A stretch of 64,000 nucleotides of DNA. Origin: an uncultured Spirochaetota bacterium (GTDB taxonomy: Bacteria > Spirochaetota > Spirochaetia > SZUA-6 > Fen-1364). The position numbers are program-made. Of the stretch, positions 36,001 to 42,000 are shown piece after piece. Where the stretch lies: assembly GCA_963820525.1 (NCBI GenBank), contig CAWGAA010000001.1, positions 64,001 through 128,000 of the forward strand, written 5' to 3'. The stretch's first letter is position 1. The number at the start of each line of letters is the position of its first letter.

Positions 36001-39000
36001 GGCAGGATGCGATAGGAAAGTCGGTGCCCCTGGATAAAACCGTCGAGATCCTCAGGGAAGCGAAGAGCCTGGGATGGAAGAGCGCCAAGTTCTACTTCAT
36101 GGTCGGGCTTCCCGCCTCCCTTCAGCTTGACGAATCCACGCCGATCGTGGAGTTCCTCCGCCAGGTGAGGGCCGCCACGGGAATGACGATCCACGCGAAC
36201 GTGGCCGCGTTCATCCCCAAGCCCCATACACCGTTGGAGCTCTCGCCCCAGCTCGGAGAGGAGCCGGCCCTCCAGCGGATCATGGCCGTGAAAAAAGGCC
36301 TCGCGGGAGACGGATTCAAGATCGGCTACCACGCCCCCTTTCTCTCGCTTCTGGAGGGGATCGTATCCCGGGGGGATGAACGGGCGGGGAGGCTCGTCCT
36401 GGATGCGTACGCGAGCGGAGCTCGCCTCGACGCATGGGAAGAGCACATCCGCGTCGATCTCTGGAGATCCGTCATCGCCAAGGCGGGATGGGATGTCGAA
36501 GGAGAGACGTGCAGGCCCCGCTCCGCTCAGGAAGCCTTGCCGTGGAGCTCCATCGCCCTGGGCGTCTCCCAGGCCGTCGTCTTCGACGCGCCGACGTCCA
36601 CGAGGGCGGCCCTCCCTCCAAGCGAACGGCGGGCCGGGGGCGTTCAGACTGCGGCGCGGATCCTCTTCAGCTTCGCCAAAACTGGCACGGCCGCTTTCAC
36701 CTCCCATCTGGATCTCCTGAATGTCTTCGAGAGGGCTTTCGCCAGGGCGGGCTACCGTGCTGTCTTTACCGAAGGGTTCAATCCCAAGCCACGCCTCGAG
36801 TTCGCCAGCCCCCTTGGACTGGGCATCGAGAGCGAAGAGGAGATCGCCAGCGCAGAGCTTTCGGATTTCGATTCGGAGCAGGAGCTCAAGAGAAGGCTCT
36901 CCGGAGCTCTTCCCGCGGGCCTCTTGGTCACCCGGGCGGCTCCAATGGCCAGGACACCGACGGGGAAGAAACCCTCCCTCATGGCCGCATACTGGGGGTC
37001 GGAGTACGCCCTCCATGTCGCCGGCCAGGAGCCCGGACCCGACGTCGCGGCTCGGGTGGAGGCGGCGGCCGCTGCCGGGATTGCGGTTTCTCCGCGCGAG
37101 GACGGCTGGGCGCTCCAGGTTCCCACCGGCGCCGCCGCAAAGGCGGCGCTCGCGGCGCTGCGCTCGACGTCGGGTGTCACGATCCGGCGGCTTCGCACAC
37201 TCGCCGGCGCCGAAGGCGGCGCGCCCGTCTCCTACTTCGACGCCTTCCGCTCTTCAGCCTTTATCTGATTCCAGATCTCGTCCATCAGCTGGAGCCCCGC
37301 TTGCGAGGGCGTCGTTCCTTGCTCGTTGAGGCGCCTCTCCACCTCCCGGAACCTTGTGATGAACTTGTCGTTGGTGCCGTGGAGAGCGAGGCCGGGATCC
37401 ACGCCGAGGAGCCGGGAGAGGTTCACCACGGTGAAGAGGATGTCTCCGATCTCCTCCTCGATGCGGCGCGCATCTCCCGTGGAGCTTGCGTCCATGAGCT
37501 CGCCGATCTCCTCGCGAAGTTTCTCCCACACCGGCTCGGGGCTCTTCCAATCGAAGCCGACCTTGGAGACCTTCTGCTGGATCTGGTGAGCCCTCTCCAG
37601 GGGCGGCAGGGACTTGGGAAGGCTCTCCACCGTGGAGGGCTGTCCCCGGCCCTTTTTTTCTTCTGCCTTGATCTCGTCCCAACGGCTCACGATCTCCTCC
37701 ACGCTTTCGGTCTTACTATCGCCGAAGACGTGGGGATGCCTGCGGACGAGCTTTTCGCTGATGGTTTCCATCACCTGCTCCACGGAGAAGACGCCGTCCT
37801 GCTCCTTCATCCAGGAGATCATTGTCACCAGCATGTACAGATCTCCCAGTTCTTCGCGGAGGTTGTCGTCATCTGCGGCGCTCACGGCGCTCACGCACTC
37901 GTACGCCTCTTCGATGAGATTCTCGCGCAGGCTCTCCGGGGTCTGTTTTCTGTCCCACGCGCAGCCATCCGGCGCGCGGAGCCTCTTGATAATCGATAGA
38001 AGTCGGCCGAAAGCTGCCTCTGCGCTGTCCTTCATGGGTTAGCAGTTAATAATGGGTGCCGTCCCCTGTCAATAAGTGGTATACTGGAACTAGCCGGGCC
38101 GCAGGATGGGGCTCGGCTCATGGTGGAAACTCAAGCGGATGCAGGAAAGACCGCGCACGTATATTTTCCATATTTTTCGTGCCGATGGGAAATCGCTCGT
38201 TCTCCATCCCTTCCGCACCCCCGAGAAGCTGACGGCGGCCCTGGAGCAGACCGAGGTAGCCGGTAGGTACGGCGGAGATCCGCACGTGGATGAGCTGCAT
38301 CGGTTGCGAGCGGAGCTCTACGGCCTGATAGACTCCGCCGTGAAGCGACGGCTCGCCGATGTCCGCTTCATCCCGAAGTTCCTCATTTCCTCCGCCGTTT
38401 TTCTGGTTTCCTACTTTTTCTTTTCCTTTGTCGTTCAGGATCCGGTTCCCGTGGTGGATGAGCTCGTGATCTCCATCGCGCTCGCCGTGCTCGCCTATAT
38501 CATCCTGGGCAGGAGGGATGCGCGCTCGGAGGGGGCCGCTCACAGGCGCCTGGGACTCGTCGCGATCGTGGACGGCATTCTGTTCACGGAAAGCGAGTTC
38601 GTGAAGAGGGCGGAGGCCACTCTTCACGTGAACGAATCCCGTGGGATCGGCGAGATGCTGCGGGAGATCATCACCCCCTCCCTGCAGGAGCTGGGCGAGG
38701 AGGAGAGGGAAGAGGCCGTACAGTTCCTGGCGCTCCTGGAGGGAAGGTTCGATTCGCGGAGGCTCAAGCGCGAGGAGAGGCTGTTGAAGAGGCTCGCCGC
38801 AACGCCGGAGGCGCTTCCCGCCGGAGAGAAGCTCGCCAGCCGCGTGAAGCCGCGGGATTTCGATTTTCCCCTCTACGCGGTGTACAAGAGCCTCAAGCGC
38901 AGCGTCATGGACCGGAAATCTTAAGCGCGGAGCCCGCGAGACTTTTCAGGCGATCCGCGAGGGATTCCGGCGTGGCGGATGAGAGGGGCTGGTCGTTGAT

Positions 39001-42000
39001 GGTCACGTTCGGTGCCTGGGAGCACAATCCCATGCACGGGACGATCTCCAGCGAAAAAAGCCCGTCTGCCGTCGTCTCGCCGGGGCAGAGCTTGAGCACG
39101 CGCGAGATGGTCTCCAGCAGCTCCGCCGACCTTTTCTTTCCGCAGTTCTCGCCCGAGCAGACCTTGATGCGGAAGCGCGCCGGCGGTTCCAGGCGGAACA
39201 CGGGATAGAACGCGATGACCTCCGAGACATGATCTGGCGATACGCCGAGAAAATCGGCGATGTGCTCGATGGCGTCCCGGGGAATATAGCCGAAGCCGGC
39301 TTGAGTCTGCTCGAGGATGGGCACGAGGAGCTCCCGCTTGGGCGGGAAACGGTTGAAGACGTCAATAAGCTCTTGGGGAGGGCTCTTGGCTACGGCGGCG
39401 CCCCGCTCCTTTTCTTCGTGCTTCTGCTTCTTCACGTAATGGGAGAGTATGGCGAGCCCCATTGCGATGTTCTCGTTTCGCACCACCACTTCGGATGGCA
39501 CGGCGAGCTGCGTCGGAGAGAAGTTCCAGATCGCCGTGATGCCCAGGGACACGACCCGGCTCGCCACCTGCTGGGCCGCCTCCTTGGGGACGCAGAGGAT
39601 CGCGATTCCCACGTCGAAGCTGCGTACCACCCGCTGGAGGGATTCCATGGGAAGGATTGTGAAAGCCCCCAGGATGCTCCCCACCTTGGCCGGATCGTTG
39701 TCGAAGACGGCCACCAGGCGCAGGCCGTATTGAGCGAGGCCGGGGTACTGGCTGAGAGCCGAGCCGAGATGGCCCGCGCCGATCAGGATGGCGGTGTTTT
39801 CATAGTTGATGCCGAGGAACTCCTCGATGGCCTTCTTCAGGCCGAGGATCGAGTAGCCCGACTTCGGCTTGCCCTTATAGCCGATGAGAGAGACGTCCTT
39901 GCGCACCTGGGTGTCGTCGATCTGGAAGAATCGCGCCAGCTGCTTCGAGGAGACGTTGGATTCGCCGCGGGCCTGCATCTCGGCGAGGATCTGGTGGTAG
40001 AGGGGGATCCTTCGAAGCGTCTGCTCGGGGATCTGGTGCTCCATCTCACTGGACTTTTTGGATCGATCCGTTGTGCGCTTACTGGCTTCCACGGGATTCC
40101 ATCTCGCGCTGGAGGTCTATCGCCTGCTGCACCATGTCGATGCTCTCCCGTGCGGGTGTGTACTTGGGATCTAACGCCAGTACCTGCTTCCAGTATTCAA
40201 TGGCCTTTTCGTAGTGGCCCTGTGCGTATTCCTTCACGCCGGTCCGGTACAGCTCATCTGCCTGGTCCTGGGTTGCCTTCCTGCCGAAGTCTCCGAGGTC
40301 GAATTGGGCCTGCACGCTGAACTTGTCGACGGGGTTGAGCTCTCCGCTCAAGTCCAGATTGTAGTTGACGACGATGCTCATCGTGCCGAACTCCAGGGTG
40401 GTGCCCAGGGCGAGGCGGGGATTGTCCGCCTTGAGCAATATCCCGCTCTGGATGGAGAGGAAACTGGTGACATTGACGTTGGTGCCCACGGCCACATTCC
40501 ACTTCTCGGCGGGAGCGTTCACGGGATCGAAGCTGAAGGGATAGTTGAAGTCGCAGGCAAGCGTCCAGGGGCGCAGGGGGGAATAGGCGAGTCCCGCCGT
40601 GGCCATGAGGGGAAGCTGCTCTCCGGCCAGGCTGGACAGCCCGAGGTTCTTCAGCGTGGCTCCGAGACGGAAGTTGCCATCCAGGGAATGGTAGAACTTC
40701 AGAAAGGGGATGTTGAAGCTGGTCATGAGCCCCAGGTCGGTCATGAACGCCAGAGAGGACTGGTTGGCGGAGAAGACGGCGGGGATGCTCCGGTAGGCCA
40801 CCTTGAGATTTGTCCCCGCGGCCAGCCCGAAGAAATAATAGCTATGGAAGAAGTTATAGGAGATGTTCATGGTGGCGATCGATTCGGTTATATAGCCCTT
40901 CGCTCCCCGTTCGCCCCAGTCGTTGTACGCCGTGAAGGGAACATAGAGGAACTTGCCGCCGAATCCTATGCCCAGGTCATTGAAGCGGACCGTGTAGACG
41001 ACGCCTTCGAGGTTCGAGTCCGCGATCCAGTTGTGGTGGTAGAAAGCGAGCTCGGTCTGGCTCAGCAGAGAGCTGGCCGAGGGGTTGCTCTCGATGAACC
41101 CGCTGTCCAGCGCCATGGCCGTGTACGCGGTTCCCATCCCTTCGTACCTGCCGCCCATGGGGATGAGAAGGGTGGGGAAGATCGTCAGCCCGGTGTTTGG
41201 ATCGGCGAACTGGGAAAAGGCGCCCGACCAGCCCGAATACAGGTCATTATTGTCGGCCCAGACGGGGCCGCAGCCGATGAGAAGACAGAGCGCGATAAGA
41301 AACGCCTTGCCCTTCATACTACGCATATTATACAACCTTTTATCGGTTTATTCCATGGTATGCGCCGGGGCGCCGGTGACCAAACTCCACTTTTCGTCGA
41401 TAATAGAAGATGTGGGAGCACGCGACCATGCGGCCGCTTAAGGGGGCCATAACCGCGCTCGTACTCTGTCTCGGCCTCATCGGGGCGGCGCCCTCCTTCG
41501 CTTCTGGAGCGCAGGAGAACCGGCTGGGAGAAGCCCGCCGCCTGATCCAGGAGAAGAGCTACGACGAGGCCCTGCTGCTCCTCGCCAATATCGAGGCGGC
41601 AAATCCCGATCTGCGGGACGAGACCCGTGCCCTCATTTTCCAGATCATGGACATACGGCGGCGGTACAACGCGGAGTACGAGAAGCTGATCGATGTGTTG
41701 AACCAGATGGACCTGGAAAAGGGCCTGGCGATCATCAATGAGCTGGAGGCTCTCGATCCCCATCCCAACCCCGCCATGATGAGCTCCATCGAACAGGCAA
41801 AGAGGGGCGCCGAAAACGTGTTCAATGCGATCCATTTCCGCGACATCATGGACTCGGCGTACAAGCTGATCGCGCAGAAGAAATACGCGGAAGCGCTCGC
41901 CGCCTACCTCCAGCCTATAGAGAACTTCAACACCATCGGCTTCAATCTGCACCGCGACACCTTCCTCGCGGCGGGCTATGGAGACATCACCGTGAAGAAC

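Follow-up and report, generated by a model that had tools for sequence, protein, structure and literature searches.

The only Rex homologue encoded by this uncultured Spirochaetota bacterium was found to be a complete repressor, with a winged helix, an NAD(H)-binding Rossmann domain, and a C-terminal helix, that is extended in the same open reading frame by a [2Fe-2S]-type domain. The added domain is a diverged paralogue of HydC of spirochaetal hydCBA [FeFe]-hydrogenases and was acquired long ago. With this extra Fe-S domain on its sole Rex, the bacterium may have a single regulator that responds to two redox signals. We give about an even chance to the reading in which this Rex receives a second redox input through Fe-S chemistry, so that NADH sensing and canonical operators would be joined to a HydC-derived sensor domain. 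Coordinates (Table 1) refer to the whole 64,000-nt stretch analysed (the window), position 1 of which is position 64,001 of contig CAWGAA010000001.1 (GCA_963820525.1).

Table 1. Positions in the window of the rex fusion gene, its parts, and its neighbours
Feature	Coordinates	Strand	Basis or remark
Rex::HydC-like fusion gene	38905..40044	-	ORF, Pfam, NCBIfam; 379 aa plus stop
Winged-helix DNA-binding domain, residues 4-52	39889..40035	-	Pfam PF06971 (Put_DNA-bind_N), 2.1e-16, full profile 1-49
NAD(H)-binding Rossmann domain, residues 82-177	39514..39801	-	Pfam PF02629 (CoA_binding), 3.1e-15
Long C-terminal Rex helix, residues 193-216	39397..39468	-	AF2 model
Variable linker, residues 217-223	39376..39396	-	Lowest-pLDDT 10-residue block, about 71 (AF2)
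HydC/NuoE-type thioredoxin-like [2Fe-2S] domain, residues 229-369	38938..39360	-	Pfam PF01257
Putative ligand pair 1, C296 and C301, motif C-S-G-E-N-C-G-K	39142..39159	-	Both invariant in 15 aligned fusions
Putative ligand pair 2, C337 and C341	39022..39036	-	C341 invariant, C337 in 14 of 15 aligned fusions
Upstream co-directional gene, UPF0164 and TPR	40079..41335	-	Pfam
Convergent conserved gene, 272 aa, without Pfam family	38106..38924	+	3' end overlaps rex end by 20 nt

Translation confirmed the gene limits and the 379-residue length given in the genome-wide survey's note and added the minus strand. The frame is open from the ATG at 40044 to the stop codon at 38905-38907, with no internal stop. 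If translation began at the alternative GTG codon at 40092, the protein would be 16 residues longer and the frame would overlap the upstream gene. The stop codon of that UPF0164/TPR gene lies 34 nt ahead of the rex ATG, and because of this spacing and the common direction the two genes probably form a single transcription unit. Their synteny was kept in families f1 (that of the source genome), f8, and f5, and homologues of the 272-aa gene occupy the equivalent position in the f8 and f5 loci. The neighbours of the fusion were the UPF0164/TPR gene, the 272-aa gene of unassigned family, and MazG, and the survey had likewise remarked that the fusion is not next to hydrogenase or Nuo genes; no gene for a NuoF/HydB-type flavoprotein adjoining or fused to it was found among them.

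Pfam reproduced the limits of the two Rex domains reported in the survey. The NCBIfam Rex equivalog NF003994 gave the protein 245.1 bits (cut-off, 130) and NF003996 gave it 234.4 (cut-off, 138); the former match (residues 3-211) covers 55% of the protein, as had been stated. Across the 5.05-Mb genome, the rex fusion alone exceeded the cut-off for Put_DNA-bind_N, and the claim that it is the sole Rex homologue holds. R12, K49, and D50 were invariant in the 15 aligned fusions, as were the Rossmann motif G89-x-G91-x-x-G94 and D115, the acidic residue that follows strand 2. The AF2 model of the fusion protein (pLDDT 94.2) contains the long helix of residues 193-216, which corresponds to the domain-swapped helix in solved Rex dimers, and the monomer model gave a TM score of 0.91 with Thermus Rex 3ikv_B in Foldseek. 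Canonical Rex proteins (Thermus T-Rex 1xcb/3ikt, Bacillus subtilis 2vt2, Thermoanaerobacter RSP 3wg9, and Thermotoga maritima 5zz5) match residues 1-216 over their full length (E value 4e-35, TM 0.82-0.91, 29-39% identity; 38-39% for the solved Thermus chains), with the winged helix, the GxGxxG-bearing Rossmann domain, and the C-terminal helix all covered. However, the solved chains comprise 185-224 residues and end after the C-terminal helix, whereas the fusion protein has 163 residues more. The linker that follows the helix varies in sequence and is nearly constant in length across the 15 aligned fusions.

The added part matched PF01257 (2Fe-2S_thioredx; 2.7e-38) at profile positions 4-144, that is, 141 of 145. 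It consists of a helical bundle and a thioredoxin-like fold, so that both NuoE/HydC sub-domains are kept, and its four cysteines (C296, C301, C337, and C341) are spaced C-x4-C-x35-C-x3-C. The complete domain with four canonical cysteines described in the survey was thereby recovered; in one of the 15 aligned fusions the third ligand position is Ser. On the basis of these ligands, residues 229-369 are predicted to carry a [2Fe-2S] cluster. The best solved matches were NfnC (9n5u_C), HydC (8a6t_C), and NuoE (6hl2_A). In PMC11647496, an isolated HoxE-type subunit is described as holding a stable [2Fe-2S] cluster with an Em of -424 mV; we counted this precedent, in which such a domain alone can hold a cluster, in favour.

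The fusion might be an artefact in which an error of sequencing or assembly, or else a recent inactivating read-through, has joined two neighbouring genes, rex and a nuoE-like one; separate rex and then hydC genes are indeed common in other phyla (L025, L031, L032, and L063), and the stop of rex and the start of hydC even overlap in L032. However, the frame is open, and all three Pfam domains were present in 119 of 120 among the clusters listed (90% identity clusters). Contigs of two other runs cross the junction (38600-39832 and 38600-39840) with 0 gaps each. A search of 92 genomes of the order detected the full-length fusion in 20 genomes of two families: 16 of 25 in f1, including the source genome and one copy with an internal TGA, and 4 of 5 in f8, where a fragment was also seen at the start of a contig. 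In addition, the five closest distinct pairs gave dN/dS values of 0.014-0.031 in the Rex part and 0.048-0.159 in the fused domain, indicating purifying selection on the latter. These results refute a merge artefact, to which we assign a negligible chance. That the fusion is genuine, is conserved, and evolves under purifying selection makes a functional second domain likely.

In genus g4 of f1 and in three other families (f3, f4, and f5), the same synteny holds a Rex orthologue without the domain, and no Rex was detected in the 24 genomes of family f2. The survey's description of a fusion in two families with plain Rex in others is thus borne out and refined over the 92 genomes. Because the orthologues in f3, f4, f5, and g4 lack it, the [2Fe-2S] domain is dispensable for Rex function. 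They would also suit the view that the domain takes no part in signalling and is kept for the stability, oligomerisation, or solubility of what is a plain NADH-sensing Rex, a view that further draws on the variable linker and on the far stronger constraint on the Rex part than on the added domain. Against it, the four ligands are kept between families whose fused domains are 47-50% identical, a dN/dS of 0.05-0.16 was obtained, and the replacements flanking the ligands (see below) are themselves conserved. We regard such a passive role as rather unlikely.

The survey had assigned the domain to the NuoE/HoxE family. The fold and the ligands agree with this, but the domain stayed below the curated NCBIfam equivalog cut-offs for NuoE/HoxE/FdsG (TIGR01958, 108.6 against 142.4; HoxE NF005747, 99.6 against 224; NF004638, 107.1 against 198). 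Moreover, its nearest relatives in the tree were HydC subunits from spirochaetal hydCBA operons, which share its clade (96/93); the four other NuoE-like genes of the same genome, each with a NuoF-type partner of its own as neighbour or fused to it, lie apart. The domain is therefore a paralogue of HydC and not of NuoE or HoxE proper. Over one set of genome pairs, identity was 61-67% in the fused domain and 78-85% in HydC, indicating that the former diverges faster.

We compared 44 fusions at 36 near-invariant columns, defined by at least 80% conservation in 15 stand-alone NuoE/HydC-type subunits: 22 were kept, 3 were partly kept, and 11 were replaced. The replacements are conserved in turn. 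At the first ligand pair, the G-T-A-C-H-V of the stand-alone subunits, seen as GTaCH in solved NfnC and HydC, becomes G-E-x-C-(S/G)-(R/K); single replacements include T299E, H302(S/G), V303(R/K), G275E, T278A, and G289A, and those adjoining the ligands reach 89% for E, 98% for A, and 93% for R. The survey had proposed a cluster of the type that wires NADH dehydrogenase and hydrogenase diaphorase modules. The loss of residues that are near-invariant in flavoprotein-bound subunits speaks for a changed function and against the usual wiring into a diaphorase module.

The same residues bear on another reading, in which the HydC-like domain would still bind a HydB/NuoF-type flavoprotein and Rex would be tethered to, titrated by, or reduced through the hydrogenase or some other enzyme that contains NuoF, with partner binding or sequestration, not free cluster chemistry, as the regulatory event. 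The retention of both sub-domains at 141 of 145 profile positions, the descent from the HydC whose own operon has a Rex box in sister genomes, and the presence of at least four NuoF-type proteins in the source genome are in line with it, as is a separate, distant fusion, P0125, which may be a true subunit because it keeps the canonical G-T-A-C-H-V. On the other hand, several of the 11 replaced residues adjoin the cluster ligands, the fused domain evolves faster than HydC of the same genomes, the fusion is retained where hydCBA is absent, and the NuoF-type genes of the source genome that are paired with a NuoE-like domain already own one each. We therefore consider docking to a partner enzyme improbable.

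The operator sought was TTGTGAA-N4-TTCACAA. The published Rex consensus operator TTGTGAANNNNTTCACAA, as quoted in PMC5317091, is present in the sister genomes. A Rex box was found upstream of hydC in all 20 regions fetched and, with 3 mismatches or fewer, in 17 of 17 f1 regions; the best box per region had 0 mismatches in five, 1 in nine, 2 in two, and 3 in four. In G064, it lies just 3' of a TTGACA element, 20-54 nt ahead of the hydC start. These results suggest that hydCBA itself is likely a target of the fusion Rex in sister genomes. The source genome contained no site with 1 mismatch or fewer, and its 7 sites with 2 mismatches were all inside called ORFs, so that no canonical operator was found; no Rex box was present upstream of its hox, nuo, Stn-like, or rex operons. 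PF02906 had no match in this genome (96.7% complete), that is, it has no [FeFe]-hydrogenase and has lost the hydCBA operon. PF02906 was also absent from three fusion-bearing f8 genomes (G088, 95% complete; G091, 94%; G089, 87%). Because these four genomes keep the fusion without PF02906, the fusion persists independently of the hydrogenase.

Several known systems share parts of this design. HydC, NuoE, HoxE, and NfnC (8a6t_C, 7p5h_C, 6hl2_A, and 9n5u_C) have the same fold and four-Cys [2Fe-2S] site (E values 2e-27 to 1e-23); however, they are subunits of flavoprotein modules, whereas the fused domain is not a free subunit, has no adjoining flavoprotein gene, and differs at the first ligand pair and several near-invariant positions. 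In rex-hydC-hydB-hydA operons (L025, L031, L032, L063, and L114), Rex is linked physically and by operator to a HydABC-type hydrogenase, but rex and hydC are two genes, as in the Caldithrix abyssi operon described in PMC5317091, and their HydC proteins form another clade (100/99) than the fused domain. Two other fusions of Rex with PF01257, P0125 (386 aa) and P0157 (301 aa, from Omnitrophota), have the same domain order; they are 33-37% identical, lie on long branches outside the Rex clade of the order, and are probably independent fusion events. P0157 keeps only the thioredoxin-like half.

SoxR, IscR/RsrR (Rrf2 family), and FNR are Fe-S cluster transcription factors. The principle proposed for the fusion is the same, namely that the redox state is signalled by a cluster which a DNA-binding protein carries; in contrast, Pfam detected no MerR, Rrf2, or CRP domain in the fusion protein, and the cluster would sit in a borrowed enzyme-subunit fold and act beside a pyridine-nucleotide sensor.

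In the two-input reading that we prefer, the Rossmann domain would sense NADH/NAD+ and the winged helix would bind canonical Rex operators. The C-terminal domain, descended from HydC of an electron-bifurcating-type hydCBA hydrogenase, would have given up its enzyme-subunit role and become a second sensor, which would respond to the state of the low-potential (ferredoxin) pool, to oxygen, or to Fe-S supply. Redox sensing by this domain, and any effect on DNA binding, are what we infer. The domain would be held on a short tether right after the helix that couples both Rex subunits to the DNA-binding domains, and from there it could bias the NADH-controlled open/closed switch. The variable linker is easier to reconcile with a loose tether than with rigid allosteric coupling. 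The dispensability of the domain for Rex function, the lack of a canonical operator in the source genome, and the Ser at the third ligand in one aligned fusion also count against the proposal. In a more specific form, which we offer tentatively, NADH/NAD+ would be read by the Rossmann domain and the ferredoxin pool or oxygen by the re-tuned HydC-type cluster, and operators would be freed only when both agree; hydCBA, which needs both substrates, would be gated in this way in sister genomes, and other targets would be served in the hydrogenase-free genome.

Rex is the standard bacterial NADH/NAD+ sensor. Our literature search found no paper describing a Rex::[2Fe-2S] fusion, and Rex is treated as a single-input regulator in the literature found. 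If the two-input reading is true, a natural, widespread Rex with a built-in Fe-S domain would represent a novel design of Fe-S transcription factor and would illustrate how a regulator can capture a subunit of its target enzyme as a sensor. It would also give direct access to the way in which fermentative anaerobes that express bifurcating hydrogenases balance NADH and ferredoxin.

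The genome-wide survey's note had placed a Rex repressor fused to a [2Fe-2S] domain here, and the coordinates it gave were found to hold an open reading frame in which all three claimed domains were recovered with Pfam. A GTG at position 40092 could serve as an earlier start; the relatives' proteins are about 9 residues longer at the N-terminus. The protein passed two NCBIfam Rex equivalogs (245.1 bits, cut-off 130, and 234.4 bits, cut-off 138; residues 3-213), and the curated NuoE, HoxE and FdsG models all matched residues 210-379, every score lying below its cut-off. In a search of solved structures, residues 4-212 aligned with Thermus Rex (4e-35) and residues 226-371 with NfnC, HydC and NuoE (1e-26 to 5e-25). 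An AlphaFold2 model built from an alignment of 107 rows (mean pLDDT 94.2, pTM 0.66) showed an unbroken helix at residues 193-216 and a brief drop in confidence at about 217-223, followed by a four-helix bundle and a thioredoxin-like fold. Foldseek gave this model a TM score of 0.91 against Thermus aquaticus Rex and about 0.6 against NfnC and HydC. No other Rex DNA-binding domain above the cut-off was found in the genome, in agreement with the claim of a sole Rex homologue.

Coordinates of the fusion gene, its domains and the other features described (L numbers are fetched loci; C1-C3 are contigs of the present genome)
Feature	Location	Strand	Remarks
Rex fusion gene	window 38905-40044	-	ATG at 40044, stop at 38905-38907; 379 aa
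Put_DNA-bind_N	fusion residues 4-52		Pfam 2.1e-16
CoA_binding	fusion residues 82-177		Pfam 3.1e-15
2Fe-2S_thioredx (PF01257)	fusion residues 229-369		Pfam 2.7e-38; profile positions 4-144 of 145
272-aa gene	window 38106-38924	+	conserved, no Pfam family; convergent with rex, 20-nt overlap with rex end
1017-aa gene	window 41410-44463	+	no Pfam family; divergent from UPF0164-rex unit
1554-aa gene	window 44460-49124	+	BNR-like, Ig-like, HAMP and SpoIIE/PP2C phosphatase domains; divergent from UPF0164-rex unit
Rex-MazG frame of G050	L113 3742-6024		760 aa
Split NuoF-like gene	L018 7171-9209 (C3, ~776.7-777.2 kb)
NrpR-type regulator gene	L019 5795-6802 (C1, ~1.747 Mb)
First matrix site	L148 7187-7204 (C1:1901187)		score 23.0
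Second matrix site	L149 ~2334-2351 (C2:199334)		score 17.0

An artefact in which rex and a nuoE-like gene were falsely joined is excluded. The domain junction was spanned by contigs of two other public runs (window 38600-39832 and 38600-39840), with no gaps and four substitutions each. Among the 120 best-listed clusters (90% identity) of a large protein collection, 69-100% identical to the fusion, 119 carried all three Pfam domains; their named members came from Spirochaetia MAGs and were labelled only "redox-sensing transcriptional repressor (Rex)". The fusion itself is publicly annotated as plain Rex, and no description of a Rex-NuoE/HydC fusion was found in a full-text literature search. 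The four cysteines reported for the added domain (C296, C301, C337 and C341) were read from the sequence; an alignment of 15 fusions showed no variation at C296, C301 and C341 and had C337 in 14 sequences. Over the five closest distinct orthologue pairs, the Rex part had dN/dS values of 0.014-0.031; those of the added domain were 0.048-0.159. The added domain is under purifying selection, about five-fold weaker than that on the Rex part.

A survey of 92 genomes of the order SZUA-6 bore out the claim of a fusion in two families, f1 (that of the present genome) and f8, with orthologues lacking the Fe-S domain (Rex-only) in f3 to f5; genus g4, inside f1, is also Rex-only. In the 25 f1 genomes, a full-length match lay in one open frame in 15 and contained an internal TGA in G053; the match was split between frames in G070 and G067, cut by contig ends in G055 and G058, and of unclear state in G050. 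No Rex match was found in G056, G057 and G060, which are 70-90% complete. The g4 genome, G073, has a rex (L158) that stops after a linker-like tail with mazG directly behind on the same strand, and neither the Fe-S domain nor the convergent 272-aa gene is present. G050 (genus g2), a 60%-complete MAG, has an open frame combining a Rex-like part (46% identity) and a MazG part (54%), with an internal TGA according to the whole-genome search; the frame could represent an additional, unusual rex locus or result from a faulty assembly. Four of the five f8 genomes carried the fusion and one a fragment at a contig start. Rex-only orthologues were found in 18 of the 21 f5 genomes (65-71% identity over residues 4-210), in both f3 genomes and in one of two f4 genomes. 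Families f6 and f7 had only distant Rex proteins (26-38% identity), several of whose genes adjoin or diverge from a nuoE-like gene, and the 24 f2 genomes had no Rex.

The order of a UPF0164/TPR gene, rex and a convergent 272-aa gene was common to the fusion loci of f1 and f8 and the Rex-only loci of f5. It is therefore apparent that these are true orthologues differing only by the added domain. Homologues of the 272-aa gene at this place in the f8 and f5 loci were 44-51% identical to it. In a Rex-domain tree, the fusions and the Rex-only orthologues of the order formed one starred clade (99/97), within which the f1 fusions, the f8 fusions and the Rex-only proteins of f3, f4 and f5 made a three-way split whose branching order was not resolved; gain and loss of the domain are therefore not polarised by this tree. 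The position of the Rex-only genus g4 inside f1 suggests that the domain was lost at least once.

A tree built for NuoE-like domains placed the fused domains and stand-alone genes from SZUA-6 genomes together in one starred clade (96/93). Wherever the context was read, these stand-alone genes were the first gene of an [FeFe]-hydrogenase operon, hydC-hydB-hydA (hydCBA), as in L127 (PF01257, then Complex1_51K, then Fe_hyd_lg_C) and L122 (HydC, then a HydB-like gene). The four other NuoE-like genes of the present genome fell outside the fused-domain clade; they are the complex I nuoE, a HoxEF fusion adjoining a [NiFe]-hydrogenase, and two in NuoE plus NuoF modules with GltD- or GltB-like partners. 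The hydC genes located behind rex in Clostridia, Bacillota, Bacteroidota and Armatimonadota MAGs formed a distinct clade (100/99), apart from the fused domains. The NuoF-like gene of the NuoE, NuoF and GltD-like (Stn/Nfn-like) module is split over two reading frames inside the FMN-binding domain, which reflects a frameshift or an error in sequencing. Directly upstream of a NuoE, HydB-like and glutamate-synthase-like module in the present genome lies a gene for an NrpR-type regulator, a type known from archaeal nitrogen control.

Such an ancestry raises the alternative that the added domain docks on a flavoprotein of the HydB/NuoF type. Among the Complex1_51K matches of the present genome no orphan NuoF partner was evident; two matches (C3:1054495 and C1:428854) have no NuoE-like neighbour. 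Genomes of the f1 genus g3 carry an ordinary hydC in addition to the fused copy, which indicates that the fused domain is a paralogue and not a working subunit. Docking of this kind is considered unlikely.

The 36 columns at least 80% conserved in 15 stand-alone subunits were compared with 44 fusions; 22 columns, including all ligands, were kept, 3 were partly kept and 11 were replaced. At the first ligand pair, C-x-G-T-A-C-H-V of the stand-alone subunits is changed to C-x-G-E-x-C-(S/G)-(R/K) in the fusions, whereas solved NfnC and HydC chains have the G-T-A-C-H form. Further replacements include G275E, T278A and G289A, and the new residues are in turn conserved among the fusions. In a comparison using identical genome pairs for each part, identity within g3 was 95-97% in the Rex part, 78-85% in stand-alone HydC and 61-67% in the fused domain, and between f1 and f8 it was 77%, 65-68% and 47-50%, respectively. 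We infer from these comparisons that the added domain was probably freed from the constraints of a flavoprotein interface while its cluster site was retained. A passive, purely structural role for the domain seems improbable.

All 20 hydC-upstream regions examined (17 from f1, 1 from f8 and 2 from f5) contained a match to the Rex consensus published as TTGTGAANNNNTTCACAA (PMC5317091, citing Ravcheev 2012). The best site had no mismatch in 5 regions, one in 9, two in 2 and three in 4. In the relative G064, the Rex box lies just 3' of a TTGACA element, 20-54 nt before the hydC start, and is the only site in that genome with at most one mismatch; G068 has three such sites. The boxes at hydC suggest that the fused Rex of the sister genomes almost certainly represses hydCBA via an ordinary operator. 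Two of the regions belong to Rex-only f5 genomes, and the link between Rex and hydCBA therefore predates the fusion or is independent of it. The number of Rex boxes in the f8 genomes was no higher than that of a reversed-pattern control, and two of the sites inspected fall inside ORFs.

No [FeFe]-hydrogenase large subunit was found in the present genome (96.7% complete, 4 contigs); each of the remaining 24 f1 genomes encodes one. In f8, three genomes (G088, G091 and G089) likewise carry the fusion and no such subunit. The consensus scan of the present genome yielded no site with at most one mismatch and seven with two, all within called ORFs, and none of its hox, nuo, Stn-like, Glt-like and rex operons had a Rex box upstream. 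ORFs in these scans were called crudely from GC3, not taken from an annotation. Scanning with a matrix trained on the 20 sites upstream of hydC (training range 14.4-32.7) revealed one strong intergenic site, a near-perfect palindrome of the Rex-box type (TAGTGA-N6-TCACTA) 16 nt before an ABC-ATPase gene. The operon behind it also holds a small GntR-family gene, and the palindrome could equally serve as operator for Rex or for this regulator. The next site precedes a class-V aminotransferase gene by 27 nt; among the Rex targets reported for Caldicellulosiruptor bescii is a class-V aminotransferase (PMC6391272). Both sites are leads only, as putative Rex targets.

An exhaustive search of 1.84 billion protein representatives gave 11,506 matches. 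Pfam scanning was performed on 12 of the 150 best-listed ones, chosen as unusually long, with two matched stretches, or N-terminally truncated. Among these 12, Rex with PF01257 occurred in three separate 50%-identity clusters: P0115 (the cluster of the SZUA-6 fusions), P0125 (386 aa, 37% identical to the fusion) and P0157 (301 aa, Omnitrophota; thioredoxin-like half of PF01257 only). P0121 is a fragment, truncated at the N-terminus, of a fusion of this type. P0125 and P0157 were long branches outside the SZUA-6 Rex clade, and P0125, unlike the fusions of the order, keeps G-T-A-C-H-V. Four further proteins were Rex with N-terminal extensions, and four (P0123, P0126, P0132 and P0193; 394-443 aa) were tandem Rex-Rex proteins with two winged-helix and two Rossmann domains per chain, which look like a single-chain version of the Rex dimer.

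The added domain follows the C-terminal helix of Rex directly, on a short tether. In Rex dimers this helix is swapped between the subunits and packs at the hinge of the DNA-binding and NAD(H) domains, and NADH closes the dimer, which is then released from DNA. The added domain would carry a cluster serving as a readout, by its redox state or its integrity, of the ferredoxin pool, oxygen or Fe-S supply, and beside the hinge the domain might modulate the NADH switch. An isolated HoxE-type subunit can hold a [2Fe-2S] cluster with an Em of -424 mV (PMC11647496). Judged from the sequences, there is about an even chance that the domain, bearing a cluster, reports a second signal and modulates the NADH switch. 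The fusion is a known Rex with a new, unstudied, sensor-like added domain. Its persistence in genomes without [FeFe]-hydrogenase weakens a purely hydrogenase-bound role: in the present window, the fusion has outlived the hydrogenase operon that it apparently regulates elsewhere.
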